DNA of 50,451 nucleotides from an uncultured Solibacteraceae bacterium (GTDB lineage Bacteria; Acidobacteriota; Terriglobia; 20CM-2-55-15), in NCBI GenBank assembly GCA_964584785.1, contig CAZPBY010000012.1:1-50451 (forward strand). Direction: 5' to 3'. Every line of letters begins with the position of its first letter. The stretch's first letter is position 1. Below, in pieces: positions 2,795-42,494 of this stretch. Position numbers and translations under genes: made by a program. A model generated the notes under the pieces. The model saw only the letters and a list, made by a program, of their open reading frames with translations, ran no database searches and had not been told where the DNA came from.

Positions 2795-3555
2795 CGAAAC
2801 CGCAAACAATCTGGGAACCGCCACTCGGCCTCGACCGCTTGCGGCCTCGCGACGTTCGTTTGACCGGCGAGGCGATTGCGCTGCTGGTCCTTGTTGGCGC
2901 GCTCTTGATCGGCGCAGTTGCTTCCCTTGTTCTTCTGACCGACGTCACGCGTGAACAGAATGAAGAACAGCGACTGCTTCGCGAAGAAGGGTCGGACGCC
3001 CAGGGCATCGTGACTCGACTCTGGCGGACGTCCGAGAAATCGAACCCGGGCTGGGCCTCGTACACCTTCACATCATCCAAAGATGGCGCGGTCCATGAAG
3101 GACGCTCTCGAATCCCCGTGCGGCTCTGGAACAGTTTGCGTACGGGATCCATGATTTCCATCCGCTTCGTCCCCACACGTCCGGAAATGAATCGTCCAGA
3201 AATGATCGAACGGAATCCCACACCCATCTGGGTCGCGCCGATGACGGCTGCCGCGCTCGCGGCTACTGCCGGCTTGCTGACGTTACCGCTGCGAAAACAG
3301 CGTTTTCTCCTGGTCGAAGGACGCCCGGCGCCAGGCCGGGTCACGGGTCTGAAGAAGACGGACAAGGGATCCATCGTTCAATTCGAGTATCAGGTTCTAA
3401 GCGGGGCGACGAGAAGCGGACGAAGCGGCCCGATGCGTAAGCCACCGGGCGTAGGATCGAATGTTGTTGTGATCTACGATCCCAATGATCCCGAACGTCA
3501 CGCCCTTTATCCGTTACGGTTGGTGAAGCTGACGAGCGAGCGCCCACTGAGATAG
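2791..3555 (+). CDS. DUF3592-like two-TM membrane protein (two repeats of a TM + beta-rich module)
   Basis: The ORF track extends it back to 2596, but the in-frame ATG at 2791 overlaps the Arc gene's stop. Two TM helices ([41 protein letters not shown]) each precede a beta-rich module ending in a DUF3592-like V.YDP..P motif ([15 protein letters not shown]). Confidence 0.55.
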
Positions 3556-3729
3556 CCGGGACTTTCGGAATTGTTTTACCTTTGAAGGCGAAGGCGGTTT
3601 GCTGGCCATTCGCGGGTTGAAAAGTGAAAGCAGCAGAATGCAACTCGAGATGCGCGATACCACAAATGTTCATCGGGCAGCGGATCATCATTATCCGAGG
3701 GAAGAATCAACCACTGGAATCCGCTCGAG

Positions 3730-4674
3730 CTATTCCGGATCGAATGGTTTTTCGGTAACCATCGCCAGCCAGGCTCGAGCGACCCGTTCGGTTGGAAGCC
3801 ACCCGGTAGCCTCTGTTCCGGTGGGCGCTCCTTCTGCAGGTCGAAAAGTCTTCGTTTTCAGATCGGCGATAAAGCCTGATTTCGCGTTTAACGGTTTGAG
3901 ATTTCCGCCGTCGAGACGCAGGCTGAGGACGTCTTCGTAAAGGATTCTGGCGACGTCGATCGACCGTCCAACCACATGCGCGACGGCTGATTCTTCCGCC
4001 AGTGCCCAAAGGGCGCCGGCGCGGCGATTCAGGTCGAAGAGGCCGGTGATGATGTGGACGCGTGAATCGAGATCTTTACCACCGATGAAAAGTATTCCCG
4101 GCACGTTGCGCGCAGCCTGCGAGGCCAGAGCGGTGTAGTAAATACCACCTTTATTCACGACAAACGCCAATACGCGCTCGGGCTTCCAGGCAACGAATTC
4201 ATAATTGAACTCGCCGCCGGCCGACATCCCCCACAGCAGCAACGGCGCTGTCGCAAGCTCGGGATGGTTGGAGCGTTCGGCAAACCTGTCCAGGGCCGTC
4301 AGCAGCGCCTGACCACTACCGCGGCTTACGTTGACGTAGTGTTCAATGAAGCTTTGGTCGTGCGCTTTATCTGTCAGGCGCACGCCGACCAAAGCGAGTC
4401 CGTGCCGGGTCGCGAAGGTCCGCCAGGTCTCGTCCTCAGCCATCGGACGGCCGTCGCCATTCGATCCGGGAACCAATATGAGCGCCGCCCGGACTGTTAG
4501 AACTTCCGGGGGCAGCCATAACCGGAACTCCGCCTTGTCGTAGTTTTCGCCGGGCGGGAGAGTTTGGTCGATCGACAATGCGCTCCCGGGAAGTCCCGCC
4601 GCGAACGAAACCGGCACCGCCCCAACCACCAGCATCACCAGTATTCCGAAACCCAACGCGTAGCTCGTCTTCAT
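3730..4674 (-). CDS. Secreted alpha/beta-hydrolase (esterase/peptidase-like)
   Basis: It has the GxSxG nucleophile elbow LWGMSAGGE. A signal peptide (MKTSYALGFGILVMLVVGAVPVSFAAG) begins at the internal Met at 4674, whereas the ORF track starts at 4713. Confidence 0.7.
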   Translation of the reverse strand: MKTSYALGFGILVMLVVGAVPVSFAAGLPGSALSIDQTLPPGENYDKAEFRLWLPPEVLTVRAALILVPGSNGDGRPMAEDETWRTFATRHGLALVGVRLTDKAHDQSFIEHYVNVSRGSGQALLTALDRFAERSNHPELATAPLLLWGMSAGGEFNYEFVAWKPERVLAFVVNKGGIYYTALASQAARNVPGILFIGGKDLDSRVHIITGLFDLNRRAGALWALAEESAVAHVVGRSIDVARILYEDVLSLRLDGGNLKPLNAKSGFIADLKTKTFRPAEGAPTGTEATGWLPTERVARAWLAMVTEKPFDPE

Positions 4675-4783
4675 TGATGCATCTCCCACTCCGGAGTCAG
4701 ACGATGTTATCAAATCCCCGGAAGCGTGGCAGCACTTAGCCTGTCGTCGGGCTATTTCAATTCTGTGTGAAGTATTCTCAGTC

Positions 4784-5944
4784 TTAGGAGCGTGTGAGAG
4801 AGGCCACGACCTGCTCGGCTACAAAATCGAGTTCGTCGTAGCCGATCGTCAGCGGGGGAAGAAAGCGCAGGACGGTACTGCCGGCGGGCATGGCGAGGAC
4901 GCCAAGGTCCATCAACTTCATCAGGTAAGGCTGGCCCTTTTCCTTGAGTTCGATCCCGACCATCAAGCCGAGGTGACGAATCTCGCGCACACTGTCGAAG
5001 GGATGCTCACGTAGCTTGCCCGTAAAGTAATCACCTTTCTGTTGCGCCTGCTTGTCGAGTTTGTTTTCCAGCATGAAGTCGATGGCCGCGCTCCCAGCGG
5101 CGCAAACAAGCGGATTGCCGCCAAACGTGCTGCCATGTTTGCCCATGGGGGGCTGAATCTTCTCCGAACAAACGGCAGCGCCCATTGGAAGGCCGCCGGC
5201 AATGGCCTTGGCAACGCACAGGATATCCGGCTCGAGGCCGAAGTGTTCGCACGCAAACATTCTGCCGGTGCGGCAGAAGCCGGTCTGAACTTCATCGATG
5301 ATCAATAAGAGATCCTTCTCGTCGCATAGTGTTCGGACCTGCCTGAAGTACTCGCCGCTTCCGACGTGCACGCCGCCCTCACCCTGAACGATTTCCAGAA
5401 TGATACCTGCAGTAGAGTCGTTTACCTTTTCCTGCAGCTTTTCGAAATTGTTGAATGGAACGTAAGTGAAACCGGGCACGACAGGTTCGAATTCCCTGCG
5501 ATATTCCGGATTGAATGTTGCGCTCATCGCGCCCATGGTACGGCCGTGGAAGCCGCGCATCGCACAGATGAACTCCGTTTTCCGGGTGGTGAAACGGGCG
5601 AACTTGATCGCGGCCTCAATGGTTTCCGTGCCGGAGTTGCACAGGAAAGCGCGCTTCAGGTTCCTCGGCGCAATGGACAAGAGTTTTTCCAGGAACGATG
5701 CCCGCGCATCGTTGTAGAGACTTGACGAGCAACTGATCAGGCGCCTTGCCTGCCGCTCCACTGCCGCTACGACGGTTTCATTGCCATGCCCAAGACTGGC
5801 CACACCGTGACCCGCAATGCAATCGATGTACTCGCGGCCGTTCTCGTCCCATACCTTCGCGTTCTTACCCCGCACGATCACGAGATCGCGCTTCGGGTAA
5901 ACGCTGAATTCGTACGCAGCTTCGAGTGCCTTGAAGTCCGTCAC
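4784..5944 (-). CDS. lysJ: Class III aminotransferase, acetylornithine / [LysW]-aminoadipate-semialdehyde aminotransferase
   Basis: It carries the PLP-enzyme motifs [20 protein letters not shown] and [11 protein letters not shown] (Lys). A GTG start overlaps the lysZ stop (GTGA), and it is the last gene of the lysW cluster. Confidence 0.85.
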
Positions 5945-6732
5945 TGAATAGTCGTCCCGTTTCCGGCAAGAGCATCGCGGATCGGGTGTTCCACCCTGCC
6001 GTCGCTGATGAAAATTCGGCTCGCGCCGTTGGCAGCGAGCCTTCGTAGGGCGAGCATCTTTCGTTTCATACGGCCTTCGACCTGAGCTTCCCGCAATTCC
6101 AGTTCTGCTTTAGAGATGTGCCGCACGAGAGAATCCGCGTTGTGAATATCGTCCATGAACCCCGGCGCCTCGATCAATTGGATGATCGTGCCCGCATGAA
6201 GGGTTTCCTGCAAGAGACTGACGATGTCGTCGTTTTCGGAATTAATCGCAGTGTTGTTTTCGTCGAGAATCGGGATGCAAAGCACCGGTATGTAGCCGTG
6301 GTCCAGCAACAGTGTGATCAGTTGGTGATTCACGCTTCTGGGCTTGCCGGAGTAGTCATGCATCATGATGGTCTTCTCGTTCTGGCGGACGCGGATGCCT
6401 TTGTTGCGGGCGCCTTGCACGATCTTGCCGTCGATTCCCGAGAGTCCGACCGCGTTGATGCCATATTGCTGGCACAGTTCGACGAGGCGCTTATTCTGAA
6501 GGCCGGCATAACCCATCATGATCGCATCGATGGCCTTCTCGTCCGTCAGTACGCTGCTGTAGCCGGACACCGACGTGACGGTTTTCGTCGGGTGTCCCAT
6601 CTTCGTCGCGATATCGTCGCGCACAGCATTCGCGCCGTGGACGATGATGTATTTTTCGTTCAGGCCCGCCAGATCCTGAACCACACCTTTCAAATTGACC
6701 TCTCTTCCGCCGCCGACTTTAACGATAATCAT
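5941..6732 (-). CDS. lysZ: Amino-acid kinase family, [LysW]-aminoadipate kinase / acetylglutamate kinase
   Basis: The N-terminus MIIVKVGGG and the motif IIVHGANAV match the ArgB/LysZ fold. Its start ATG overlaps the upstream gene's stop (ATGA). Confidence 0.85.
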   Translation of the reverse strand: MIIVKVGGGREVNLKGVVQDLAGLNEKYIIVHGANAVRDDIATKMGHPTKTVTSVSGYSSVLTDEKAIDAIMMGYAGLQNKRLVELCQQYGINAVGLSGIDGKIVQGARNKGIRVRQNEKTIMMHDYSGKPRSVNHQLITLLLDHGYIPVLCIPILDENNTAINSENDDIVSLLQETLHAGTIIQLIEAPGFMDDIHNADSLVRHISKAELELREAQVEGRMKRKMLALRRLAANGASRIFISDGRVEHPIRDALAGNGTTIQ

Positions 6733-7382
6733 CGCGCCCCCGACGTGATTCCGAACGACCGGAACGTTCCGCTCTCGATCTTCTCCCAGCGCTCCGGGCC
6801 TGGTAAGACTTCGGATGCGATCACCAGCCTCCCGCTGTCCGTGGTGAACTGCATGGTGAAATAGTCGGGGTCCTCGTTGAACAACGATGCGACGTAAACG
6901 GTCGACATGTCCGCCATAATGATGTTCATCGCTCGAATGTACGTGGTTCGTTTACGGATGACTTCCACGCCGCGCTCGAGAGCATCGATCATATCTCCGC
7001 GGTCGAAGCGCTTGATGAAGTTGAATATCTTCTCGGCACCGATCCTGCCTTTCTCCGAGATGCGCACTCCTCGAAGTTCGCCGTTGAAGATGAACACATG
7101 ACGATCGTCGTAGAAGGGCATGTTGTTCTCCACGGCAATGCCTTCGTCCTTGAACGCGCTCCGCGCGTGCGCCAGCAGGAGCCGGCTTTTTCCGAACTCA
7201 AAGCGGGATTCCCAGATCGGTTGAATGTTCTTGTAATGTTTCCACGCGCCGTCCTCGATGTACGCACAGCCCCAGCCGTGACCCTGAAATTCCCTGCTAT
7301 GTTTCGCGATGAAAGCGAGCCGCTCCAGTTGCTCCGCGACTGCAAATTCATGGTCGGACTTTACGAGCAGAAGCCGGCACAT
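6729..7382 (-). CDS. Class II glutamine amidotransferase-like Ntn hydrolase (GATase_4/YafJ type), embedded in the lysW cluster
   Basis: The N-terminal Met-Cys nucleophile (MCRLLLV), LAHARSAF, NNMPFY and FIFNGEL are all class II GATase hallmarks. It is coupled to argC upstream (1-nt gap) and to lysZ downstream (ATGA overlap). Confidence 0.75.
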   Translation of the reverse strand: MCRLLLVKSDHEFAVAEQLERLAFIAKHSREFQGHGWGCAYIEDGAWKHYKNIQPIWESRFEFGKSRLLLAHARSAFKDEGIAVENNMPFYDDRHVFIFNGELRGVRISEKGRIGAEKIFNFIKRFDRGDMIDALERGVEVIRKRTTYIRAMNIIMADMSTVYVASLFNEDPDYFTMQFTTDSGRLVIASEVLPGPERWEKIESGTFRSFGITSGAR

Positions 7383-7383
7383 T

Positions 7384-8448
7384 TTAAAGAGGATGAAGAC
7401 CGGGGAATTCCAGGCCCGCGGTTTCGTCGAATCCGTGCATCAGGTTGAACGCCTGGACCGCTTGACCGGCCGCGCCCTTCATCAAATTGTCGATGGCGCT
7501 GATGACGACAAGGCGATTCGATTTCTCGTCCCTCTGAAATCCGATATCGCAGTAGTTCGTGCCCGCAAGCCATTTGGGCTCCGGGTAACGGTACGTTCCT
7601 TCGGCTTCTTTAACGATCCGGATAAACGGCTCCTGACCGTAAACCTGCCGCAGGACTTTCCAGATGTCCTTGTCCGCCAGCTTGTCTTTCAAAAACACGT
7701 GAGACGTCGCGAGCGCACCGCGCACTAATTCAACTGAAGTGACCGACAGGTGAATCTGGATGGGGTTGCCGAAGCTTAATTCCTGCAGGACCTCGCCTGT
7801 GTGGCGATGCCCGGTAGGCATGAACGAACGCACGGCCCCACTGCGTTCCGGATGATGCGAGGAAGCGCTCGGTATATTGCCGCCTTCGCTCGACCCGACC
7901 TTGACTTCAACAACGGTGCGGTCCGGTTCAACGAGTCCGAGCTTATAAAAAGGATACAGCCCCAGGATGGTCGCGGTCGCGTTACAACCTGCACTGGATA
8001 CGAGATCGGCTCCTCTCATCTCATCTCGATGCAGTTCGGGTATGCCGTAAACAAACGTACCCAGAAGGTCGGGCCGTGCGTGGGGCTTGCCATACCAGTC
8101 CTTATAGGCAGTCTCGGTCCGCAAACGGAAGTCGGCGCTCAGATCGACGATTTTGCGGCCGACCGATTTGAAGAAATCGATCTTTCCCATGGCTTCGCCA
8201 TGCGGCAAGCAGCTGAACAGCACGTCGCACGAACGCAACTCGTCCAATTTCGAAAACTGCAGCTCGGTTTTCTTCCGCAGATTCGGGTGAGCCTTGAAAA
8301 CCAACTTGCCGGCCAGGCGCTCGGAAGTGACCTGCATTATTTCGACGCGCGGATGGCCCAGCAGCACTCGCAATAATTCGCCGCCGGTATAACCCGACCC
8401 GCCGGCTATGGCGCACTTTACTTTGTCCACCATGCTACTTTCCGGCAA
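7384..8448 (-). CDS. lysY: N-acetyl-gamma-glutamyl-phosphate / [LysW]-aminoadipyl-phosphate reductase
   Basis: It has the NAD(P) Rossmann motif [17 protein letters not shown] and the ArgC family fold, over 354 aa. Its start overlaps the lysX 3' end by 14 nt. Confidence 0.9.
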
Positions 8449-9283
8449 CCCGAAGCACGTAATCGACGATCATTTTCGGAATATCGACGCCGGTCGTGGT
8501 GATGCTGTTACGAAACTCCATGGTGTAGTTCACTTCGTTGACCTGGAGTCCGCGCTCGGTTTCGAAGATATCGATGGCGACAACTCCACCGCCCACAGCG
8601 TTTGCAGCTCGCACCGAAAGATCCTTCAGCTCGTTTGTCAACGGACAGTTGAATGCCTTGCCTCCCTGAGCGGTGTTCGTGATCCAGTGGTCCGAAACCC
8701 GATAGATGGCCGCGATGCATTCATCGCCGACGACGAAGCTTCGAATATCGCGCCCTTTTTTCTCGATGTATTTCTGAATGTAGAAAATCGAGTGATGGTA
8801 GCTTCCGAGCGTGACCTTGTGCTCGAGGATCGTTTCAGCAGCATCCCGATCATTGACCTTGGCGAGCAGCCTTCCCCACGAACCCACGGCCGGTTTCAGC
8901 ACGACCGGGTATCCCATCGCTTCGATGGCCTGCAGCGCCGATTCCTCCGTGAATGCGATCCGCACTTCCGGCTGCGGCACTTTGTGCTCTTCGAGCGCGA
9001 TCGACGTCAGCATCTTGTCGCCGCAGATCGTCGCGACGTGCGAAGTATTTACGCATTTCACTCCCGCCGATTCGAACAGTCGCAACGCGTGAAGCGCTCG
9101 AGAATGGTTGATGCATCTTTCCAGGACGACATCGAAAGGAAAGTGATCTCTGCCGAGGTTGAACGCCAGTTTCCGGTCGTCGAGCATCACGGTCTCAACG
9201 CCGCCACGACTCGCAAACTCCTTGAGGATGAATTTTTCCTCGGGACGAATGAGCGAGTGGAGAAAACCGACTTTGATGCTCAT
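8435..9283 (-). CDS. lysX: RimK/ATP-grasp ligase LysX (alpha-aminoadipate--LysW ligase)
   Basis: The ATP-grasp fold is evident ([41 protein letters not shown]). The true start is MSIKVGFLH at 9281-9283, with a GAGGAGG SD; the ORF track's extension to 9364 covers lysW. Its ATG overlaps the lysW stop (ATGA). Confidence 0.85.
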
Positions 9284-9444
9284 TGCCCCCAATCCTCCTC
9301 TTCGGTCGGGGCCTCGGCGAGTATCGCAGGATGGACCCCTTTGACTTCCAGTTCCGAACCGCATTCCTTGCAGGAAATGAGTTCTCCCACCACCGCATCG
9401 TCACCCAGGTTCACCGTGGCACCGCAAATGGGACACTCAGCCAT
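9280..9444 (-). CDS. lysW: Amino-group carrier protein LysW (54 aa, zinc ribbon plus acidic EDWGQ tail)
   Basis: Manual translation gives [54 protein letters not shown]. The CxxC...CxxC zinc ribbon and C-terminal EDWG tail are diagnostic of LysW. A GGAGGA SD sits upstream. The ORF is below the 60-aa cutoff of the supplied track. Confidence 0.85.
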
Positions 9445-9625
9445 TGTCGAATTCCTCCAGGTTCAATCAATCTCGCAAGACGTCAGCGCAGACTGTGAAG
9501 TTTAGCGTGAATAAGTCGAAGCCGTGTAGACTTTGAGCCGATGAGGCGGGCAGTCCCGTTGACCGCGCGGTTCTCTTACCAGCGTCCTTTTGTGGATCAC
9601 GGTCTGCGCATCCGGTCCCATTCAG

Positions 9626-10033
9626 CTACGTCGATGAACGATACCCCTTCAGCTCGATCGTATTGTGTTCAGGATCGTTCAAATAAACCGACGGTCCATT
9701 TCCTTCGGCGCCGTAATTGTCGTGAACGTTCCCGAGATCGATTCCGAATTGGTTGAAGTGGCGCCGGAGGCTGTCGATGTCGAAGGGTTCTATGCGAAGG
9801 CAAACGTGATCCATGTTATGGCCATCCGCAGCGGGAGCGGCGCCGCCCATCTTTCCGATCTCGCTATCGACGCTGACGAGGTCGATTAACTGCGAACCGG
9901 CACGAAGGTGTATCAGTCCGAGCCGCTCCACGCGTTTGTCCAGGGCGCAGCCGACGACGTCGCAATAAAACCGGGTCATCCGCTCCACGTCGCGGCATCG
10001 AATGACAATGTGGTCCAGGCCAATGATGTTCAT
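9626..10033 (-). CDS. VOC-family (glyoxalase/bleomycin-resistance/extradiol dioxygenase fold) protein
   Basis: The fold signature is MNIIGLDHIVIRCRDVERMTRFYCDVVGCAL ... NMDHVCLRIEPFD. The start is taken at the internal Met at 10033. Confidence 0.65.
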   Translation of the reverse strand: MNIIGLDHIVIRCRDVERMTRFYCDVVGCALDKRVERLGLIHLRAGSQLIDLVSVDSEIGKMGGAAPAADGHNMDHVCLRIEPFDIDSLRRHFNQFGIDLGNVHDNYGAEGNGPSVYLNDPEHNTIELKGYRSST

Positions 10034-10121
10034 GAACAATATTGTAGTAGCCCGAAATTCAAATGCTGTAACGTAACTGCCACCCAATTCGCTGGGTTAT
10101 TCATCAATAACGGCTGAACCC

Positions 10122-11918
10122 ATGGAGCAGCTGCGCCAACGTAAAGAGTGGAAATTCTTCGGTGTCTTGTGGAAGGCCCACGCCGGGCTTGCGTCCGTGT
10201 GGTGGCTGATTCTGTTCATGCGCGGCGTGCTGCCGGCGGTGCTGTCGATCGCCACCGGCCTGGTTATCCGAAATGTTCAGCAGAATGCCACTCTGACCGT
10301 GCCGCTGGTTTTTGCCGGAGCGGTGTTTCTGTTGCTGCAGATTCTCACGCCGCTTCATTTGGGTGTGGGGTCCAATCTCGGCGATCGAACGGCGTCGTGG
10401 CTTTACGACCGCCTCACCGAATCGTGCGTGCGGCCGCCCGGCATGGGACATCTCGAGGATCCCAAGCTGACAGGCGACCTGATGCTGGCGCGCGATTTCG
10501 ATCTGGCGATGATGGGACCACCCCTGTTTATATCGATGGATTTCATCGCAGGCGGACTGGTGGAAATGATCGGCGGTCTTGCCTCAGCTGTCGTGCTCGG
10601 CTGGTATCACTGGTGGGCTCCGATCCTTCTGGTCGGCGCCTGGTTCGCGACACATTGGCTTTTGCGTGAAAGCGCCGTGTGGCGCGACCGAAATACCGAT
10701 GAGGTGCGGGCGGCGCAACGCGAATCGGAATACGCGTATCGGATCGCAGTCGATCCGCCGGCTGCGAAGGAACTGAGACTGTTCGGCCTCGCCGGCTGGA
10801 TCATCGAGCGGTTCATCACACGGCGGACGCAGTTGCATAAACTGCAGTACGAAGCGACGCGGCTACGAGAGAAGCCGCTCGCGCTCAGCCTGCTGATCGT
10901 TGCTTCGGCGAATATCCTCTTGTTCTGGTCTATCGCAAACTCGGCGTCGACTGGAACCATCGCTCTCTCTCGGGCGATTGTTTTTGCGCAATGTGCGCTC
11001 GGGACGTCCATGATCGCGTTCGGTGGTCTGAATTGGGCTCTCGATTGGGCGGCTTCACCCGTCGGTGCGGTGCTGCGTCTCAAGGCATCGATGGATATCG
11101 CCGGCGCTTTGCATGCCGGGATCCGCGCGGCGGAGAAGATGCCCCGAAGCGAGATCCGTTTTCGCAACGTTACGTTTGCGTATCCGGGCGGCCAGGAAAT
11201 TCTGAAAGACTTCAACCTCACGATTCGCGCCGGCTCATCGCTCGCGATCGTCGGCAGAAACGGTGCAGGAAAGACGACGCTGGCGAAACTGCTTTGCCGG
11301 CTCTACGATCCGCAATCCGGCGCGATCGAAGTGGACGGCGTCGACATTCGAGAGTTGAATATCGAAAGCTGGCGGTCGCGGTTGGCCGCGGTGTTCCAGG
11401 ATTTCATTCGATTCGAACTCTCTCTTCGCGACAACGTGGCTCCGCAGGGCGCACCCGACGACGTGATTCAACGCGCGCTCGAATCCGCTCGAGCGGCAGG
11501 ACTGGCTCATCTGGACACCGTGCTGGCGCGCGGATACGACGGCGGGACCGATCTATCCGGCGGCCAGTGGCAGCGCGTCGCGTTGGCTCGGGCGCTGTGC
11601 GCGGTGGGCATGGGCGCTCGCGTGGTCCTTCTCGACGAGCCTACGGCTCAGCTCGACGTTCGAGGCGAATCGGAAATCTTCGACCGGCTTCTCGAAGCGA
11701 CGCGGAACTGCACCACGATTCTGATCTCGCATCGATTCTCGACCGTCCGGCATGCCGACCGGATCTGCGTTTTGGAAAACGGCTCAGTGACCGAACTCGG
11801 CACGCACGACGAATTGATGGCGCTCGGCGGACGGTATCGCACGATGTTCGATCTGCAGGCGCAGCGATTTGCGGCAACCGAAGACGAGGAAGGCAAAGCC
11901 TATGACGTCCTCGCCTAA
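10122..11918 (+). CDS. ABC exporter, fused permease + ATPase (subunit 1 of a heterodimer)
   Basis: A six-TM N-terminal domain is followed by Walker A GRNGAGKTTL, the signature LSGGQWQRVALARAL, Walker B VVLLDEPTAQLD and an H-loop SHRFST. Confidence 0.85.
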   Translation: MEQLRQRKEWKFFGVLWKAHAGLASVWWLILFMRGVLPAVLSIATGLVIRNVQQNATLTVPLVFAGAVFLLLQILTPLHLGVGSNLGDRTASWLYDRLTESCVRPPGMGHLEDPKLTGDLMLARDFDLAMMGPPLFISMDFIAGGLVEMIGGLASAVVLGWYHWWAPILLVGAWFATHWLLRESAVWRDRNTDEVRAAQRESEYAYRIAVDPPAAKELRLFGLAGWIIERFITRRTQLHKLQYEATRLREKPLALSLLIVASANILLFWSIANSASTGTIALSRAIVFAQCALGTSMIAFGGLNWALDWAASPVGAVLRLKASMDIAGALHAGIRAAEKMPRSEIRFRNVTFAYPGGQEILKDFNLTIRAGSSLAIVGRNGAGKTTLAKLLCRLYDPQSGAIEVDGVDIRELNIESWRSRLAAVFQDFIRFELSLRDNVAPQGAPDDVIQRALESARAAGLAHLDTVLARGYDGGTDLSGGQWQRVALARALCAVGMGARVVLLDEPTAQLDVRGESEIFDRLLEATRNCTTILISHRFSTVRHADRICVLENGSVTELGTHDELMALGGRYRTMFDLQAQRFAATEDEEGKAYDVLA

Positions 11919-15607: not shown

Positions 15608-16693
15608 CTACACCCTTGGCGACGCACCGGGAGTGATCTTGCCTAGAACCACAGGGCGGCTCGCTCCGGTTACCGACGGAATGTTCCCCACACGACCGCG
15701 AATCGCCTCAATCGCCAGGAGGGCAAAAGCGGCCGGCTCCTTCGCGAGAGGATGAATGCCGTAAGCTGCGATCGAAGTCACAGCCGCAGGTGCGAGCATC
15801 GACTCGAGGTGGTTCATGAGCGTGCGATTGAAAACGCCGCCGCCCGACACGATGATCTCTGTGATCTTGTGCTTCACGAATCGCGACCGCGCGTCGGCAA
15901 TGGTTCTCGCCGTGAAGAACGTAAGCGTCGCGACGACGTCCGCCGGCCGACGCCGCAGTTCCCCGCCCAACCGGTCCACCAGAAACTGGTGGCTGAACAA
16001 TTCACGGCCCGTCGATTTCGGGGGTGATATTCGAAAGTATTCGTGGTCAAGACGCGCGAGCCATTCGTGAACGACTTCTCCCGACTTCGCCACGCGGCCG
16101 GCGGCGTCGTACTCTTTCCTGAACGCGATTCGCATCGCTTCGTCGATGAGACAGTTGCCGGGGCCTGTATCGAACCCGATCGGTTTTTTCGAAACAGCCG
16201 TGAGGTTGGCGATACCGCCGATATTGAGAGTCGCCGCGGGACGAACGCCGAAAACGAACCGATCGAAGTACGGAACCAGCGGAGCGCCCTGGCCGCCCGC
16301 GGCGATGTCCGCCGGCCGGAAATCGCTGACCGTCGTGACTCCCGTTGCCGCGGCAATGTGCGCCGCCTCGCCCAGCTGCAGCGTGTGGCGGCCCGGCTCG
16401 TGCCACACGGTTTGTCCATGACAGCCGATGACGTCGATGCGACTGCGGCCAATGAAAATGGTGGCGACCTTCGCGAAGAACTTTCCCAAATCGGAATGCA
16501 GTTGCGAAAGGTCGGGCGTTCGAAGTTCCTGCGCCCTCAACACGCGCTCGCGCAGCGACGGCGGATACGCGAACGTCCGGTACGCGAGCAGCTTCATCCC
16601 GTTCCCGACACGGATTCTTGCGGCGGACACGCCGTCGGCGGACGTGCCGGACATGAGACCCACTGCAATCCAATTGAAAGTTCGCGGCATCAA
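15608..16693 (-). CDS. anmK: Anhydro-N-acetylmuramic acid kinase
   Basis: The N-terminal GLMSGTSADG motif and a family fold of about 360 aa support the call. Confidence 0.85.
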   Translation of the reverse strand: MMPRTFNWIAVGLMSGTSADGVSAARIRVGNGMKLLAYRTFAYPPSLRERVLRAQELRTPDLSQLHSDLGKFFAKVATIFIGRSRIDVIGCHGQTVWHEPGRHTLQLGEAAHIAAATGVTTVSDFRPADIAAGGQGAPLVPYFDRFVFGVRPAATLNIGGIANLTAVSKKPIGFDTGPGNCLIDEAMRIAFRKEYDAAGRVAKSGEVVHEWLARLDHEYFRISPPKSTGRELFSHQFLVDRLGGELRRRPADVVATLTFFTARTIADARSRFVKHKITEIIVSGGGVFNRTLMNHLESMLAPAAVTSIAAYGIHPLAKEPAAFALLAIEAIRGRVGNIPSVTGASRPVVLGKITPGASPRV

Positions 16694-16775
16694 TTCCCCT
16701 TTTCATAACTCAAAATCTCTGTTACAGGATGATCTATCAGTAGAGGGGGGAATGAATATTGGGAGGAACGCTACA

Positions 16776-19700
16776 ATGAAAAATAAAAAACAAATTCAAA
16801 TAATCATGTTTGTGTGCCTTGCCGCGTTGATTGGGAGTGCGGCGCTGTCGGCACAGACTGCGACGGGACGAATCGTGGGGAACATCACGGATCCAACGGG
16901 CGCCGTGATTCCCGGTGTTCGTGTGATCGCGACGAATGCCGGAACCGGAGTGAGCGTCGAGACTCTCACGAACGAAACAGGCGCGTATCAGATCCTGCTG
17001 CTGCCTGTGGGCAATTACGAGATCACAGCCGAGCTGGCCGGATTCCAGAAAGTTGTCACGAAACCGGAAAGGCTCGACGTCAATCAGTCGCTGCGCATTG
17101 ATGTCAAGCTGCAGGTCGGCGCTGTAACACAGGAGGTGGTCGTCGAAGAGGCGGCCACGCACATCGAGACGGAGTCGGCCACCTTGGGAATCGTCATCGG
17201 CGCCACGCAGATTTCGAACCTGCCGCTCAACGGACGCAACGTTCTCGATCTTGCGCTGCTCCAGCCCGGAGTCATTCCAAACACGTCCGGTAACGGAAGC
17301 TTCAGCGTTTCCGGAGGCCGGGGCGATTCCGTGACCTATTTGCTCGACGGCGGAGTGAACAACAACCTGCTCAGCAATGCGGCAGTGCTCAATCCGAATC
17401 CCGACGTCGTCGAAGAATTTCGGATCCTCACGAACAACTACGGCGCGGAGTACGGCCGCAATGCCGGCGGAATCGTGAGCGTGGTCACGAAGTCCGGAAC
17501 GAACCAGTTCCACGGCACCGCGTACGATTACGTTCGCAATGACGCGCTGAATGCGAATTCGTTCTTCAACAACGCGAACACGCTGAAGAAGGACATTCTG
17601 AAACGCAATCAATTCGGCGGCACCCTGGGAGGTCCGGTCTTCAAGGACAAGCTCTTCTTCTTCAGCGGCTGGCAGAGCCAGCGCCAGTCGCAACTGCAGA
17701 CGACCAGCAAAACAACAGTCTTCACGCCGGCGGAATTGAGAGGAGACTTTTCAAAATCCAATACGGCTGGGACCGGCCCCGACGCCAACGTGGTGGCATT
17801 CCTGCAGAAGTTTCCCTACTTCCAGCCCGATGCCAGTCTGGCAGCTCAGGGAATCATCGATCCGTCGCGCATCAATTCGGTTGCGAAGAACTACATCAGC
17901 AAGAGCCTGATTCCCACGTCCGACGTGGGTTATCTGTTCTCGCAGGGATCGGCCCGTGATAACCGCGATGAGATCACGAATAAGGTCGATTACTTCCTGA
18001 CGGACCGGGATCGAATATCCACGACACTGGGTTGGAACCGCCAAACAACGATCAGTCCGTTCTCGACGGCGAACGTACCCGGCTATCCCAATCAGACCCA
18101 GCGCAAGCAGTATTACTTCGCAACGAATTATGTGAAAACGATTTCGCCGACCATGGTCAACGACTTCCGCTTCACCGCGCAGCGAAACAACAGCCTGCAG
18201 TCGGTGCCCGTTTCAAAGAGACCGACGCCGCAGGAACTTGGAATTGGAATCATTCCGGATGAAGCGACGGGTCCCACCATTCTGGCGTTTTCCAGCGGAC
18301 TCACGGTCGGCTTCAGCCCGCAAGGCCCGTCCCGGCTGATCGACAACACATTCACCTGGACCGACAGCCTGACGTGGACCCACGGCAAGCACACGTTCAA
18401 GACAGGCGCCACGTTCACGCCGTATCAGGACAACCAGGTTTTCGACTTTTATATCGACGGGCAGTTCAACTTCAGGAACACCGGAGCTTCAAGTTCCAAG
18501 AACGATCGCGCGGACTTCCTGTTAGGAGTGCCCGATCAGTTCCGTCAGTATCCGGCGGCGCCCACGAACATCCGCACGAAGAACTTCGGCGGATACGTTC
18601 AGGATGAATGGAAGTTTTCGAGAACGGTCACGCTGTCGTTCGGTCTGCGGTACGAGTACAGCTCTCCGAAGTTCGACCGGTTCGGCCAGACGTTTTCGTA
18701 CGTGTACGGAGCAAAATCCACGGTCTTTCCCAATGCCCCGCTCGGGCTGGTGTTCCCCGGAGACTCGCAAGCTCCGAAGGGCTCGAACTTTCCCGATAAG
18801 AATGATGTTGCGCCGCGATTCGGATTCGCGTGGTCGCCGAGCGACAAGATGGTCATTCGCGGCGGAGCAGGCGTGTTCTATGACATCCTGAAGGCCGAAG
18901 ACAACTTCCAGTTCAACGGTCAAAAGCCGTTCTTCCCGACGGCCAGTTTCAATTTCAATGCGCTCGCAGCCAATCCGACGGCGGAAGTGAATTATCTGAC
19001 ACAGCCATTCGTGGCCGCGGGAATCAACAATCCATTCCCGACTCGGGCCACGCCTCGCGACATTGATTTCGTCAAAGCGGGATACTTGCCTTTCGGCGAT
19101 AGCGGTGTGTACTCGGTCGATGTGAATCTAAGGACGCCCTACATCTATCAGTACAACCTCGATATCCAACGCGAAGTGGCGCGGAACACCGTTGTGGACA
19201 TCGCATATGCCGGCAGCAGTTCTCACAAACTGACGGGCTTGTATGACGCGAATCCGTTCATCGTCGATAAGCCCGTGCCGACAACACGGTTGTTCAATGC
19301 CATTGCCGGCAACCCATCGAACGCGTTCAGTTACCTTACGACGTTTGCGAATGTCGGAACGGCAAACTACAACTCGCTGCAGTTGGGTCTGAACCGGCGA
19401 TACTCCGACATGCATGTTCTTGGCAATCTGGACTATCAGTTCTCGTACACGTACAGCAAATCGCTGGACACCGAATCCGGTTTCCGTGCCCGCAACGGCA
19501 CGGTTCCCACATACGATCGAAAGCGATTTCGCGCAGTGTCGGACTTCGATCTGACCAACTACGTATCGCTTTCGGGCAACTGGGAACTCCCGTTCATGAA
19601 GATGTGGCAGAGCGGGCCATCGCGATTGGTCAAAGGCTGGAACGTTCTGCCGATCGTGACGTATCGCACGGGTTCGCCGCTGGATGTGACCGCCGGCCTT

Positions 19701-20129
19701 TCGACGTCGATGACGCAGCCGGGACCGTCGGGCGCGGGCGATCGAAGTCTGGTGAGAGCGAATCTCGTTGCGCCAATCACGCTGTTCGACGCGCACAACG
19801 TTCAAACGCTGTCGAAAGGCAAGGGCAACTACTACTTCGATCCCGCGGATTTCTCAGCGCCGGCGAACGATCCGACGCTGCGCACATACGGCACGTTTGG
19901 ACGTAACGGCTTCCGCGGTCCGTCGCGCAGCAATTTCGATTTCAGTGTTTCGAAGGTGACGGGGATCACGGAAAGGACTTCGCTCGAATACCGAGCGGAT
20001 TTCTTCAACCTGCTCAACCATGCGGAATTCAATAATCCGAGCACCTCGATCACCGGCGGAACGTTCGGTCAGATCTCGGGTACCGCGTCGCCGAGAATCA
20101 TCCAGATGGCCCTGCGTCTGAAGTTCTAG
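16776..20129 (+). CDS. TonB-dependent outer-membrane receptor with N-terminal carboxypeptidase-regulatory-like domain
   Basis: The ORF track starts at 16428 and overlaps anmK. The ATG at 16776 has a GGGAGGA SD, and MKNKKQIQIIMFVCLAALIGSAALSAQ is a signal peptide. The CarboxypepD_reg segment TGRIVGNITDPTGAVIPGVRVIATNAGTG...GNYEITAELAGFQ follows. A C-terminal aromatic terminus (...ALRLKF) fits a beta-barrel. Confidence 0.85.
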   Translation: MKNKKQIQIIMFVCLAALIGSAALSAQTATGRIVGNITDPTGAVIPGVRVIATNAGTGVSVETLTNETGAYQILLLPVGNYEITAELAGFQKVVTKPERLDVNQSLRIDVKLQVGAVTQEVVVEEAATHIETESATLGIVIGATQISNLPLNGRNVLDLALLQPGVIPNTSGNGSFSVSGGRGDSVTYLLDGGVNNNLLSNAAVLNPNPDVVEEFRILTNNYGAEYGRNAGGIVSVVTKSGTNQFHGTAYDYVRNDALNANSFFNNANTLKKDILKRNQFGGTLGGPVFKDKLFFFSGWQSQRQSQLQTTSKTTVFTPAELRGDFSKSNTAGTGPDANVVAFLQKFPYFQPDASLAAQGIIDPSRINSVAKNYISKSLIPTSDVGYLFSQGSARDNRDEITNKVDYFLTDRDRISTTLGWNRQTTISPFSTANVPGYPNQTQRKQYYFATNYVKTISPTMVNDFRFTAQRNNSLQSVPVSKRPTPQELGIGIIPDEATGPTILAFSSGLTVGFSPQGPSRLIDNTFTWTDSLTWTHGKHTFKTGATFTPYQDNQVFDFYIDGQFNFRNTGASSSKNDRADFLLGVPDQFRQYPAAPTNIRTKNFGGYVQDEWKFSRTVTLSFGLRYEYSSPKFDRFGQTFSYVYGAKSTVFPNAPLGLVFPGDSQAPKGSNFPDKNDVAPRFGFAWSPSDKMVIRGGAGVFYDILKAEDNFQFNGQKPFFPTASFNFNALAANPTAEVNYLTQPFVAAGINNPFPTRATPRDIDFVKAGYLPFGDSGVYSVDVNLRTPYIYQYNLDIQREVARNTVVDIAYAGSSSHKLTGLYDANPFIVDKPVPTTRLFNAIAGNPSNAFSYLTTFANVGTANYNSLQLGLNRRYSDMHVLGNLDYQFSYTYSKSLDTESGFRARNGTVPTYDRKRFRAVSDFDLTNYVSLSGNWELPFMKMWQSGPSRLVKGWNVLPIVTYRTGSPLDVTAGLSTSMTQPGPSGAGDRSLVRANLVAPITLFDAHNVQTLSKGKGNYYFDPADFSAPANDPTLRTYGTFGRNGFRGPSRSNFDFSVSKVTGITERTSLEYRADFFNLLNHAEFNNPSTSITGGTFGQISGTASPRIIQMALRLKF

Positions 20130-20182: not shown

Positions 20183-21349
20183 TTACGATCGCGAAAGACG
20201 TGATCGCGCGGTGTGATAGGAATCGAACACCATAAAGGCCCAAAATCCCATTGTCAGGTAAGAAAAAAATGAATGTATCGCGCTGATGGCGGTGGCGTCA
20301 CGAAGAGCCGTAATTGCGCCGAACGCGATGATGTGGATCGCAGCCTTCTTGTACTCCGCATTGTACAGAGCGCCGAACCCGGGAATCATTCCCAGCATGA
20401 ACGCCAGCCCGGGCTTGCGGCCGCCGACGCTGGGAACCGGTTCGGCAGCGCGAACCGGCGGTGTGACGTCGCGCACCTGCACCACTGTGGTCCTGCCGGC
20501 AATCCAGTCGCGTCGCAGCCGTTCGAGATCCGATCGCAGCTCGGAAGAACGTTGATACCGGTAGCTGCGATCTTTTTCGATCGCTTTCGAAATGGTGTGA
20601 TCCAACTGAGACGGAAGCGCGGGATTGAATCGGGCGGGCGCAACCGGTTCGCGATTCAAGATCGAATCGTAAACCACAGCAACACTCGGACCGCTGAATG
20701 CCTGCTGTCCCGTGGCCATCTCATACAACATCACTCCCATCGAAAAAAGGTCGGTACGCGAATCCACTTCCTCGGCTCGTGCCTGCTCGGGCGACATGTA
20801 CGCCACGGTGCCGACAGCCGTGCCGGCGGCGGTTTTCAAAGCACCGAGCGTCGTCGCCACGTCCATGCCGGCATCCTTGGGTGCGAGTTTCGCCAGACCG
20901 AAATCGAGGATCTTCGCCTGCCCGTGGCTGGTGAGAAAGACATTCGCCGGCTTCAGATCGCGATGAATGATGCCCCGGTTGTGAGCCGCTTCGAGGCCGT
21001 TGGAAATCTGTATGGAGATATCGAGCAGTTCCTGTGTCGGTATGGGACCTCGCGAAATGCGATCCTTCAACGATTCGCCTTCGAGGTATTCCATGACGAT
21101 GAAGGGCTGACCTTCATGCTCGCCGACATCATAGATCGTGCAAATCTGCGGATGGTTCAGAGCGGAGGCCGCTTTCGCCTCCTGCCGGAATCGTTCGAGC
21201 GCCTGCGGGTCCTTCGCGTAGTCCTGCGAAAGAAACTTCACCGCAACCGGACGATCCAATCGAGTGTCGACCGCCTTGTACACCACACCCATCCCGCCCT
21301 CGCCGAGCCGATCCACGATTTGGTAGTGAGAGACGCGTTGGTTGAGCAT
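20183..21349 (-). CDS. Ser/Thr protein kinase with C-terminal transmembrane segment
   Basis: The Hanks kinase motifs are present: GEGGMGVVYKA, VAVK, HRDLKPANV, DFGLA and SPEQ. Hydrophobic helices sit at the C-terminus. Confidence 0.85.
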   Translation of the reverse strand: MLNQRVSHYQIVDRLGEGGMGVVYKAVDTRLDRPVAVKFLSQDYAKDPQALERFRQEAKAASALNHPQICTIYDVGEHEGQPFIVMEYLEGESLKDRISRGPIPTQELLDISIQISNGLEAAHNRGIIHRDLKPANVFLTSHGQAKILDFGLAKLAPKDAGMDVATTLGALKTAAGTAVGTVAYMSPEQARAEEVDSRTDLFSMGVMLYEMATGQQAFSGPSVAVVYDSILNREPVAPARFNPALPSQLDHTISKAIEKDRSYRYQRSSELRSDLERLRRDWIAGRTTVVQVRDVTPPVRAAEPVPSVGGRKPGLAFMLGMIPGFGALYNAEYKKAAIHIIAFGAITALRDATAISAIHSFFSYLTMGFWAFMVFDSYHTARSRLSRS

Positions 21350-21466: not shown

Positions 21467-23107
21467 ATGAGTGCATTCCTCCTGCTTCTTGTATTGGTGC
21501 AAGCCCCACAATCCAAGCCTCCGGCGGCCTCGATCGAGGGGATCGTCAAAACCTCCGGCACGGGTGAACCGATATACAGGGCGCGCGTCATGTTGTCCGG
21601 TGGAAACAATACGCCAAAGACGGCGACCACCGATCGAAACGGGCGCTTCAGTTTTTCTGACGTGGACGCGGGCAGATACTCACTGAGCGCGTTTGCAAAC
21701 AGCTACGTTCGGCAGTTTTACGGACAGAAGGCGGCCAACGGACCTTCAACACCTGTCGTGCTGACAGCGGGGCAGCAAATGAAGGATGTTGTGTTCGAGA
21801 TGACGCCAACGGGAGTGGTCACGGGCCGGATCTATGATTTCGACAACGCGCCGCTGCCAAACGCCGACGTTGTCCTTCAACGACTGGCATACGACGCAAG
21901 CGGGAAGCGGACATTGCAACCGGAGCAGCAGGTCCGGACCAACGACCTCGGTGAATATCGGCTGTTCTGGGTTTCGCCAGGCAAATACTTTCTTCGAGTG
22001 GAATACACCGGCGGGCCGACGCCGGTCTTTCGCAATCCCAACGATTTCATGGGACCGGCCGAGGAAGGCTACGCGCCGATCTATTATCCCGGCACAACCG
22101 ATTCGTCGTCGGCCACGGAAATCGAGATCCTGCCGGGCGGTCAGCTGAGCGCGATCGACGTGACGATGATCCGCACCAAAACGTACTCCGTCCGCGGACG
22201 TGTGATCGTCACCGTTGCCAGTGCCGCAGCCGGCCGGCCGTTCGTTTCACTCCGTCCGCGACAGCCTTCCGGAACGCTGATGGGAATCAACGGCACTGTA
22301 CCCACCATCAACCCCGCTGACGGCACCTTCGAAATCCGCAATGTGCCGGCGGGTTCCTACATCCTTCAGGCGAATTCCGGGACTCCGACGTCGGGAATGC
22401 TGCGCGCGGAAAGGCCGCTTGAAGTGAATCAGGATCTCGAAGGCATTGTGATTACGCTCAGCCCCGGTTTTGATCTTCCGGGCCACGTAGTATTCGAAAA
22501 CGGACTGCCGCAGGCCGGCACCAACTCGGTGCCGATCACGTCGATGCGCGTCATGCTGAGGCCGGCAGGTGACGGCGGCCCGGGAATCCTCAGTGGTGTG
22601 GGCGGCCCACCGGTGCTTAAACCGGACGGCACCTTCACGATCACCCAGGTCATGCCGGGCACGTATCAGATTTCGATCTTACCGTTGCCGCCGGACTCCT
22701 ACGTCAAAGCCGTGACCCTTGGCCAAACGGATGCGTTGCGCGATGGCTTCACGGTCGACCGCACTCCCGATTCGCCGATCGAGATTCTGGTCGGCGCCAA
22801 TGCCGGCAAGCTGGAAGGATCGGTTGTCGATCGCGAAGGGAAACCCCTCGCCAGCACTCAAGTGACGCTGATTCCGTTGGAACCGAATCGTGCGGATCGC
22901 TACCGGCTCAACGTCACCGACACGACCGGACATTTCACGTTTCGCGGAGTCGTCCCCGGGGAATACAAAGTGTTCGCGTGGGAATCGATGGAGGCGAACG
23001 CGTATCGCGATCCCGAATTCATTCGGCGCTATGACAATCAAGGGAAAGTCGTGATCCTGACGGAAGGTTCCAACCCATCCATCGAGCTGCGCGTGATTAA
23101 GCCTTAA
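21467..23107 (+). CDS. Secreted protein with repeated carboxypeptidase-regulatory-like (CarboxypepD_reg) beta-sandwich domains
   Basis: After a signal-like N-terminus there are several repeats of the G.V....G.P...A.V.L pattern (GIVKTSGTGEPIYRARVML, GRIYDFDNAPLPNADVVL, GSVVDREGKPLASTQVTL). The start codon is uncertain because there is no SD. Confidence 0.6.
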   Translation: MSAFLLLLVLVQAPQSKPPAASIEGIVKTSGTGEPIYRARVMLSGGNNTPKTATTDRNGRFSFSDVDAGRYSLSAFANSYVRQFYGQKAANGPSTPVVLTAGQQMKDVVFEMTPTGVVTGRIYDFDNAPLPNADVVLQRLAYDASGKRTLQPEQQVRTNDLGEYRLFWVSPGKYFLRVEYTGGPTPVFRNPNDFMGPAEEGYAPIYYPGTTDSSSATEIEILPGGQLSAIDVTMIRTKTYSVRGRVIVTVASAAAGRPFVSLRPRQPSGTLMGINGTVPTINPADGTFEIRNVPAGSYILQANSGTPTSGMLRAERPLEVNQDLEGIVITLSPGFDLPGHVVFENGLPQAGTNSVPITSMRVMLRPAGDGGPGILSGVGGPPVLKPDGTFTITQVMPGTYQISILPLPPDSYVKAVTLGQTDALRDGFTVDRTPDSPIEILVGANAGKLEGSVVDREGKPLASTQVTLIPLEPNRADRYRLNVTDTTGHFTFRGVVPGEYKVFAWESMEANAYRDPEFIRRYDNQGKVVILTEGSNPSIELRVIKP

Positions 23108-40082: not shown

Positions 40083-40182
40083 GGTGACGGCACGAAGCCC
40101 GTCGCTGCGCTCCGGGTTCTGAACACCGTCCTTATAAGACACGTGTGCGGAACCCGGAGCTCAGCGACGGGGCTTCGTGCTA
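40083..40182. repeat. REP-like palindromic element A (about 100 bp) between the convergent GGT and acylase genes; a bidirectional terminator that also encodes the acylase's last codons and stop
   Basis: The arm cacgaagcccgtcgctgcgctccgggttc faces gaacccggagctcagcgacggggcttcgtg across a 30-nt loop. It is an inverted copy of element B at 42401-42490. Confidence 0.6.
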
Positions 40183-42371: not shown

Positions 42372-42400
42372 GAGCGATCCTCCCCAAGAAGGCCAGATTA

Positions 42401-42490: not shown

Positions 42491-42494
42491 CCTT

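Follow-up and report, generated by a model that had tools for sequence, protein, structure and literature searches.

How could a lysine pathway that builds on a carrier protein operate when the attachment residue of that carrier is encoded as glutamine? This question is raised by a stretch of 50,451 nucleotides (hereafter the window; GC content of 58%) from an uncultured Solibacteraceae bacterium (contig CAZPBY010000012.1 of assembly GCA_964584785.1), in which a 54-codon gene, lysW, is predicted to encode the amino-group carrier protein LysW at the head of a six-gene lys operon. In characterised LysW proteins, a C-terminal Glu provides the gamma-carboxyl group to which LysX couples aminoadipate through the alpha-amino group of the latter. 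The protein encoded in the window ends in Gln, and its operon includes a 217-amino-acid (aa) class-II-glutamine-amidotransferase-like N-terminal nucleophile (Ntn) hydrolase for which we use the label GAT. From the sequence evidence presented below we somewhat favour an overall reading in which GAT would both deamidate Gln54 and release lysine from LysW, and the locus is likely a new variant of the LysW pathway.

Identification of a predicted lysW gene at the head of a lys operon

The operon and the elements around its first start codon are as follows.

lysW, 9280..9444, minus strand: 54-aa amino-group carrier protein with a zinc ribbon (C4/C7/C25/C28) and an acidic tail, EEEDWGQ
Shine-Dalgarno-like GGAGGA, 9458-9453, minus strand: 8 nucleotides (nt) 5' of the lysW ATG (9444-9442), read from the sequence
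CAA codon for Gln54, the C-terminal residue, 9283..9285, minus strand: its last A doubles as the A of the lysX ATG
lysX, 8435..9283, minus strand: 282-aa ATP-grasp [LysW]-aminoadipate ligase; TIGR02144 at 355.5 bits (cutoff 275.6), PF22626 and PF08443
lysY, 7384..8433, minus strand: 349-aa argC-type semialdehyde-forming reductase; TIGR01850 at 383 bits; also a 349-aa gene call in locus L001
GAT, 6729..7382, minus strand: 217 aa, starting MCRLL; PF13230 at 26.1 bits (cutoff 23), a marginal match
lysZ, 5941..6732, minus strand: 263-aa [LysW]-aminoadipate kinase; NF010659 at 243.3 bits (cutoff 223); 4-nt overlap with GAT
lysJ, 4784..5944, minus strand: 386-aa class-III aminotransferase; TIGR00707 at 425 bits (cutoff 410), and PF00202

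The lysW reading frame runs on the minus strand from its ATG to CAA TGA, with the stop codon (9282-9280) and the lysX start codon (9283-9281) overlapping as ATGA. The translation of 54 residues, the CxxC...CxxC ribbon, the GGAGGA sequence and this overlap are all as described in the first-pass annotation, which had been made from the DNA letters alone. Its assignment of the small protein to the LysW family is also borne out by searches with curated hidden Markov models (HMMs), as the protein scores 62.2 bits against TIGR01206 (cutoff 53.2) and 59 bits against PF21344 (cutoff 27). With the archaeal LysW model NF041070 the score is 62.7 bits, which is under the cutoff of 75. The LysW chains 3wwl, 5k2m and 3vpb in the PDB match the protein with E values of 1e-11 to 1e-8, and the four cysteines C4, C7, C25 and C28, which align with those of the PDB proteins as a predicted zinc ribbon, are invariant in 15 homologues. 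The protein is also strongly acidic (12 acidic and 2 basic residues, pI of 4.05), with a tail that ends EDWG-x and an EEED stretch (the Glu48-50 region) that is invariant or nearly so among the homologues.

Conservation in related genomes is evident from 14 public homologues that are 65-87% identical, two of which are named LysW by JGI. Comparison with 13 orthologous genes gave 187, 141 and 430 differences at codon positions 1, 2 and 3, respectively, and this concentration of substitutions at the third position is a coding-type pattern. The identical 54-aa gene, together with a 282-aa lysX, was called in five independent metagenome (Logan) assemblies, which indicates that Gln54 is not a read error, and the same lysW sequence is recorded for an NCBI contig 124,484 bp in length. 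No second copy of lysW is present in the 50-kb window.

Thus, 9280..9444 on the minus strand is almost certainly a real lysW gene heading the lys operon. That the 54-codon open reading frame (ORF) is no gene, with either the 69-aa ORF at 9195..9404 or a LysX extended to a start at 9364 in its place, is barely conceivable. Both alternatives do exist in the mechanical ORF list, as the first-pass annotation had warned (69 aa for 9195..9404, and 309 aa for the lysX extension at 8435..9364), although the former is not antisense as had been stated: it lies on the minus strand like lysW, in another frame, and the actual antisense shadow ORF is 8408..9505 on the plus strand (365 aa). However, it is the LysW frame that passes curated HMM cutoffs, that is conserved at the protein level and in which substitutions gather at the third codon position. 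Models of LysX begin to match at residues 4-6 of the 282-aa LysX (residue 6 for TIGR02144), and gene callers pick lysW plus the 282-aa lysX, so that the proposed lysX start at 9283 rather than 9364 is upheld. The description of lysW as a missed gene applies to the ORF track with its 60-aa limit and not to other gene callers, which do call it. As a gene call alone, lysW at this locus is therefore routine, being a known gene whose small size keeps it out of ORF lists filtered by length. Its recognition nonetheless fixes the lysX start and completes a carrier-dependent lysine pathway for this organism.

The lysW gene is translationally coupled to lysX and, as had been proposed, heads six closely packed genes in the order lysW-lysX-lysY-GAT-lysZ-lysJ, with neighbouring genes either 1 nt apart, as for the lysY start past the lysX stop, or overlapping by 4 nt. 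The last conserved gene of the operon, lysJ, has a GTG start that overlaps lysZ by 4 nt, and its product scores 439.8 bits against the LysJ_Th_th model, below the cutoff of 700. LysX is a member of the RimK family (TIGR00768, 294.6 bits). In the canonical pathway, lysine is released from LysW by LysK, a hydrolase of the M20 family. The term 'six-gene operon' in the first-pass annotation is hence correct in number but not in content, in that the fourth gene is no canonical Lys gene and the canonical sixth function, LysK, is not in the operon.

With regards to the pathway that is served, the five-residue specificity motif of LysX, F-I-T-N-S, is that of Thermus LysX (F182/I192/T203/N258/S259), which with this motif prefers aminoadipate. 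The orthologous operon of Melioribacter contains a homocitrate synthase (hcs) gene between lysW and lysX, and according to the Caldithrix genome paper LysWXZYJ and Hcs are encoded together at a single locus; the Melioribacter genome paper makes no mention of lysine. The motif, taken together with hcs in the Melioribacter and Caldithrix operons, indicates that the operon is one predicted to serve the alpha-aminoadipate route to lysine.

The encoded LysW ends in glutamine at the attachment position

The first-pass annotation had viewed the EDWGQ tail as a ligation site that contains the acceptor Glu. This part of its description does not stand, as the last residue is Gln54, which aligns with the attachment Glu (E54, E53 and E56) in each of the three LysW proteins of solved structure, all of which end in EDWGE. 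A C-terminal Glu, the acceptor that characterises LysW, is thus not what lysW encodes in the window. Given that a Gln side chain has no carboxyl group for activation by an ATP-grasp enzyme, the protein as encoded is predicted to be without the defining gamma-carboxyl acceptor. The closest homologue (P0001, 87% identity) does end in Glu. By sequence and context we classify the protein as a LysW orthologue and by its acceptor residue as a 'pro-LysW' variant, one that would be able to act as LysW only after conversion of the Gln to Glu.

Gln-ended LysW is associated with operons that contain GAT

We explored how widely this arrangement occurs by scanning genomes, one genome per species, which returned 570 loci with relatives of GAT, and by examining the best 80 of these 570. 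GAT is located in a lys operon in all of the 80 best loci, and wherever the upstream flank is visible it directly follows lysY, usually with lysZ and lysJ next. These 80 loci come from Binatia, Ignavibacteria/Melioribacter, Bacteroidota, Calditrichota, Acidobacteriota, Gammaproteobacteria, Gemmatimonadota and others, and operons of the W-X-Y-GAT-Z-J type are thus conserved in no fewer than seven phyla of bacteria. The nearest relatives of the window operon are in metagenome-assembled genomes (MAGs) of Binatia or 'Deltaproteobacteria', with 66-69% identity.

The C-terminal residue of LysW differs among these operons. When lysW is visible in GAT-type genome loci (64 cases), LysW ends in Glu in 53 and in Gln in 11. 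A LysW profile built from Thermus, Thermococcus and Sulfurisphaera (Sulfolobales) proteins served as a control: of its 120 best matches, 116 have a terminal Glu and not one has a terminal Gln, and the difference between 11/64 and 0/120 is significant by Fisher's test (p = 6e-6, with phylogeny not corrected for). A metagenome scan for the pattern ...EEDWGQ-stop returned 72 true lysW genes, and GAT is present in every one of the 22 Gln-ended loci that are long enough to judge. An exhaustive HMMER search of 1.84 billion cluster representatives gave 113 matches ending in DWG[EQ], and in 11 of these the last residue is Gln. A neighbour-joining tree of LysX from GAT-type operons contains at least 15 switches between Glu and Gln, at least seven of which are among the unselected genome loci. 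Together these results show that the Gln terminus and GAT are associated.

The same surveys addressed the absence of LysK. Metallosphaera (W-X-J-K) and Thermococcus (W-X-Y-Z-J-K) retain lysK in the operon, and GAT was not found in either of these loci or in the operons of Thermus (W-X-Y-Z) and Anaerolineales (W-X-Y-Z-J). Conversely, we found no M20 or LysK-like ORF in the window operon, in the 50-kb window or in approximately 200 loci, and phmmer searches with Metallosphaera and Thermococcus LysK gave no match in the window or in the other loci examined. A second, more divergent lineage, which came to light in the metagenome scan, has GAT at the other end of the operon, in the order W-X-Y-Z-J-GAT (L132:4684-9349) or W-X-Y-hcs-Z-J-GAT (L101:1815-7758). 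GAT in these loci occupies the slot after lysJ where Thermococcus has LysK, and in L132 its start overlaps the lysJ stop. This pattern of occurrence raises the possibility, which we put forward tentatively, that GAT replaces LysK. As GAT has no M20 homology, any correspondence to LysK would be one of analogy and not of family membership.

Several other features of these loci were observed. LysW proteins of the second lineage have the form ...SEI[IL]xCxEC...EAPx[IV]EEDWGQ, and all of those sampled end in Gln, the sample having been selected for Gln. Two further loci of the lineage with GAT after lysJ (L141 and L154) are on contigs that end too early to judge. An archaeal-looking locus on a low-GC contig from groundwater (L137:1655-4464) encodes, in this order, a Gln-ended LysW, a homocitrate synthase of 490 aa that has an additional domain at its C-terminus, and the large subunit of homoaconitase. 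We considered it as a counter-example, having a Gln-type LysW with no lysX within 2.9 kb, and set it aside as indeterminate given that the contig ends first. Six Gammaproteobacteria MAGs (L030, L039, L048, L057, L073 and L075) carry lysW-lysX-lysY-GAT with no lysZ or lysJ detectable within 8 kb; this clade seems to have a split operon, and four of its five visible LysW proteins end in Gln. Two long proteins from the HMMER search, P0323 (1052 aa) and P0356 (1805 aa), contain 13 and 8 stretches, respectively, that resemble the LysW zinc ribbon in tandem arrays. In Thermus, a LysW-like zinc-ribbon paralogue of 104-105 aa is situated just upstream of lysW and overlaps it (L086:7693-8007 and L087:7690-8007), and toxin-antitoxin pairs (HicAB, HEPN/NTase and PIN/RHH) are inserted among the lys genes of the same two loci.

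Predicted fold and active site of GAT

The GAT family, for which we obtained 3192 hits, carries the names 'class II glutamine amidotransferase' or 'hypothetical protein' at NCBI and '(predicted) glutamine amidotransferase' at JGI. In at least 90% of 26 family members Cys2 directly follows the initiator Met, and Arg74 and Asn100-Gly101 are invariant or conserved in the family alignment. An AlphaFold2 model of GAT (mean predicted local distance difference test score, pLDDT, of 85.8) has EgtC as its best PDB match in Foldseek (probability of 1.0, template-modelling (TM) score of 0.76-0.79), after which rank the glutaminase domains of PurF and GlmS, also with a probability of 1.0. Alignment of the family with Escherichia coli YafJ by hhalign has a probability of 98.4%. 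The score against the EgtC model TIGR03442 is 39.7 bits, far from the cutoff of 218.65, and the genomic context is one of lys genes and not egt genes. These comparisons place GAT, as a predicted member, in the class-II amidotransferase-like Ntn hydrolase superfamily, as neither an EgtC nor a LysK. GAT is a single-domain protein of 217 aa that has no fused or adjacent synthase domain, and by this architecture it resembles a hydrolase such as EgtC more than it does a true amidotransferase. EgtC hydrolyses a gamma-glutamyl amide in an intermediate of ergothioneine biosynthesis. The pI of GAT (7.0, with a family median of 7.7) is uninformative on LysW binding.

A difference from related enzymes is apparent in the predicted substrate site. 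The glutamine-site residues of GlmS we take to be Arg73, Asn98-Gly99 and Asp123. In GlmS the Asp of the TD(S/T)E motif binds the free alpha-amino group of glutamine and the Arg binds its alpha-carboxylate. GAT keeps the alpha-carboxylate-binding Arg and has Gly115 in place of Asp123, as an invariant 'IGAEK' sequence stands opposite TDSEK/TDTEV in the hhalign alignment with YafJ and in a MAFFT alignment with GlmS, which positions Gly115 at the TD(S/T)E Asp. A direct hhalign comparison of the family with the GlmS glutaminase domain was discarded for this purpose, as it aligned only residues 70-104 (probability of 1.3%) and is too short to include Asp123. The replacement of the Asp by Gly115 with retention of the Arg fits a glutamyl residue whose alpha-nitrogen sits in a peptide bond. 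The GAT site thus appears to be remodelled for a substrate that does not have a free alpha-amino group, such as the C-terminal glutamyl residue of a protein.

Proposed role of GAT and alternative explanations

These features suggest that GAT probably acts on the C-terminus of LysW by deamidating it. In the mechanism that we propose, the primary translation product ending in Gln54 would be a 'pro-LysW', since LysX needs a gamma-carboxyl group to form the acyl-phosphate. The N-terminal Cys of GAT would hydrolyse the gamma-amide of Gln54 to yield Glu54 and NH3, after which LysX would ligate aminoadipate to Glu54, and LysZ, LysY and LysJ would turn the carrier-bound aminoadipate into lysine. Most likely GAT would also hydrolyse the chemically equivalent gamma-glutamyl-(N-alpha)-lysine bond, giving free lysine and LysW-Glu, a release step that in Thermus and archaea is the job of the M20 enzyme LysK. 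A dual role of this kind would explain why GAT is conserved even where LysW ends in Glu, and also why free exchange between Glu and Gln is confined to operons that contain GAT. More broadly, it is conceivable, while falling slightly short of probable, that a large bacterial clade (570 species-level genomes from at least seven phyla) swapped LysK for a Cys-Ntn amidohydrolase, that the acceptor drifts freely between Glu and Gln in this clade and that approximately 10-17% of its carriers, that of the window among them, are made as an inactive 'pro-LysW' in need of maturation by an enzyme. In a literature search that left most subscription journals outside its reach, we found no paper linking LysW to an Ntn amidohydrolase or noting a Gln-ended LysW.

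Several points weigh against this proposal. The lysK gene of Thermus is also outside the cluster, so the local absence of LysK is weak evidence that it has been replaced. Regarding the association between Gln termini and GAT, the control in which none of 120 LysW proteins end in Gln may be slightly biased, in that a word prefilter can favour EDWGE sequences; 50 of the 72 metagenomic Gln-type loci are too short to judge; the EEDWGQ pattern misses AEDWGQ and GEDWGQ variants of the Thermus or Sulfolobus type; and the contig with the lysW-hcs-homoaconitase arrangement (L137) stops before the region that would decide whether GAT is present. The equivalence of the GlmS Asp with Gly115 comes from sequence alignment and predicted secondary structure, not from a superposition. 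Finally, a second LysW that ends in Glu could exist elsewhere in the genome, outside the window.

This last point belongs to a wider alternative, in which GAT has another role, either in proofreading mis-charged LysW-gamma-Glu or in a process that is not centred on LysW, with Gln54 being deamidated by another enzyme or spontaneously, or bypassed by the second Glu-ended LysW, and with LysK encoded elsewhere. A proofreading hydrolase is plausible given that Thermus LysX mis-loads glutamate at less than 10% of the aminoadipate rate and that LysZ and LysY process the resulting product. A distant lysK would be in keeping with Thermus and Anaerolineales, where lysK also lies outside the cluster, and with the Caldithrix paper, in which homologues of other pathway proteins are scattered in the genome. 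However, a proofreader of this kind would still be an amidohydrolase of the LysW C-terminal gamma-glutamyl group and would deamidate Gln54 anyway. The alternative also leaves unexplained both the position of GAT in the LysK slot after lysJ (L101 and L132) and the confinement of Gln termini to GAT operons, and there is no second lysW in the window. We regard it as unlikely, but not so unlikely that it can be neglected. It is much harder to credit that LysX dispenses with deamidation by using another carboxyl group, either the terminal alpha-carboxylate, as RimK does on S6, or one of Glu48-50. The RimK-family membership of LysX and the near invariance of the EEED stretch are in line with this suggestion, but the same stretch is equally conserved in LysW proteins that are known to use the terminal Glu. 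Moreover, Glu-ended and Gln-ended LysW proteins can differ by as little as 13% (P0001 versus the window protein), and because switches between the two recur on the LysX tree, LysX would have had to change its attachment chemistry at least 15 times, which is implausible. Very improbable as well is that Gln54 is a loss-of-function allele that has left a dead carrier in a decaying operon of this one population. Such an allele would be easily reached, as Glu to Gln needs a single G-to-C change (GAA to CAA) and the closest homologue has a terminal Glu. Against this, the identical Gln54 allele is fixed in five separate assemblies, in an operon whose six genes are all intact and still overlap, and Gln termini recur in intact operons from at least seven independent lineages and make up about 10% among diverse representatives. 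Deamidation of Gln54 by GAT, with release of lysine by the same enzyme, is the reading that we somewhat favour.

Operon flanks and other genes in the window

Little was detected in the sequences that flank the operon. An Rfam scan of the whole window returned nothing at gathering thresholds, the 191-nt leader 5' of lysW folds no better than shuffled sequence (z = 0.17), and a promoter scan of positions 3500-10300 gave no sigma-70-like site. Directly after the lysJ stop is a GC-rich hairpin with a 7-bp stem (4737-4754), which was considered as a terminator of the lys operon and rejected as not canonical for it, given that its T-run is on the plus strand only; it resembles a terminator for the opposite direction. 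Downstream of lysJ there is also a minus-strand ORF (3730-4713) that starts about 110 nt past lysJ, probably at an ATG near 4673, and that has a signal-peptide-like start (MKTSYALGFGILVMLVV...). This ORF has no match in Pfam, and those that it has in NCBIfam fall well short of the cutoffs (E values of 0.005-0.009). It also adjoins the operon in L001 and is outside the conserved operon in other lineages.

Elsewhere in the window, the following genes were observed.

16428-20129, plus strand: 1233-aa outer-membrane beta-barrel protein with a CarboxypepD_reg domain
20183-21349, minus strand: Ser/Thr kinase, situated between the beta-barrel gene and the next gene listed
21467-23107, plus strand: second protein rich in CarboxypepD_reg repeats
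24954-26771, plus strand: 605-aa bacterial homologue of angiotensin-converting enzyme, matching Peptidase_M2 (the family of that enzyme) end to end at 745 bits
32056-34545, minus strand: bifunctional aspartokinase-homoserine dehydrogenase (AA_kinase, ACT and Homoserine_dh domains)
34770-36758, plus strand: topoisomerase VI subunit B (Topo-VIb_trans and HATPase_c)
36803-37936, plus strand: topoisomerase VI subunit A (TP6A_N and Toprim), adjacent to subunit B
38180-40078, plus strand: gamma-glutamyltranspeptidase
40161-42566, minus strand: penicillin-amidase-family protein

Topoisomerase VI is an enzyme of archaeal and eukaryotic type that is uncommon in bacteria. If lysine is made from aminoadipate, the aspartokinase-homoserine dehydrogenase would serve the synthesis of threonine and methionine only. 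The gamma-glutamyltranspeptidase and the penicillin-amidase-family protein are two more Ntn-type hydrolases; they are followed by an S9 peptidase, a weaker match to the M49 family and an AMP-binding enzyme, with no evident link to the lys operon.

Significance and comparison with known systems

The wider interest of this locus lies in the Gln terminus of LysW, the invariant presence of an Ntn amidohydrolase in the operon and the absence of LysK taken together. If the proposed mechanism is true, many uncultured bacteria, and some that are in culture (Melioribacter and Caldithrix), would complete the aminoadipate route to lysine with a new enzyme, GAT, and what automated annotation would report as a gap in the pathway would be filled. 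The mechanism would also provide a function for a family that is named only 'class II glutamine amidotransferase'. Furthermore, LysW would become a second, independent case of a carrier that has to be deamidated at its C-terminus before it can be used, and the system would be a convergent counterpart, in metabolism, of Pup-Gln and Dop.

Compared with the LysW proteins (also called AmCP) of Thermus thermophilus, Thermococcus kodakarensis and Sulfurisphaera tokodaii (3wwl, 5k2m and 3vpb), the window protein is alike in its length (theirs being 53-56 aa), its CxxC...CxxC ribbon and its acidic EDWG tail. In those systems, as in the window, lysW is directly upstream of lysX, and lysY, lysZ and lysJ follow. 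The difference is at the acceptor, which is encoded as Gln in the window and as Glu in theirs. Relative to the Thermus, Anaerolineales, Metallosphaera and Thermococcus loci, the window operon adds the Ntn amidohydrolase and contains no LysK. The likeness between GAT and LysK is confined to the proposed reaction, hydrolysis of LysW-gamma-Lys, and to the post-lysJ position of GAT in L101 and L132, which is the LysK slot of Thermococcus and Metallosphaera. LysK is a di-metal M20 peptidase and GAT a predicted Cys Ntn hydrolase, so the two are unrelated in fold and mechanism.

In its fold GAT is closest to EgtC and to stand-alone class-II amidotransferase-like proteins (E. coli YafJ, PDB 3mdn and 1te5), with which it shares the N-terminal Cys, the Arg, the Asn-Gly pair and the lack of a synthase domain. 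However, identity to EgtC is only 18-20%, GAT is found in lysW operons and not in egt clusters, and, unlike YafJ and GlmS, GAT has an invariant Gly at the Asp of the TD(S/T)E motif.

The functional model that we propose for LysW-Gln, GAT and LysX, by analogy, is Pup with Dop and PafA. Some actinobacteria encode Pup with Gln as its last residue and others with Glu, and Dop both deamidates Pup and removes it from substrates. As with LysW, a small protein is ligated through the gamma-carboxyl of its C-terminal Glu by way of an acyl-phosphate, and this residue may be encoded as either Gln or Glu. The two systems are not homologous, as Dop and PafA resemble glutamine synthetase, GAT is a predicted Cys Ntn hydrolase and LysX is an ATP-grasp enzyme. 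They also differ in purpose, in that Pup tags proteins for degradation and LysW carries a biosynthetic intermediate.

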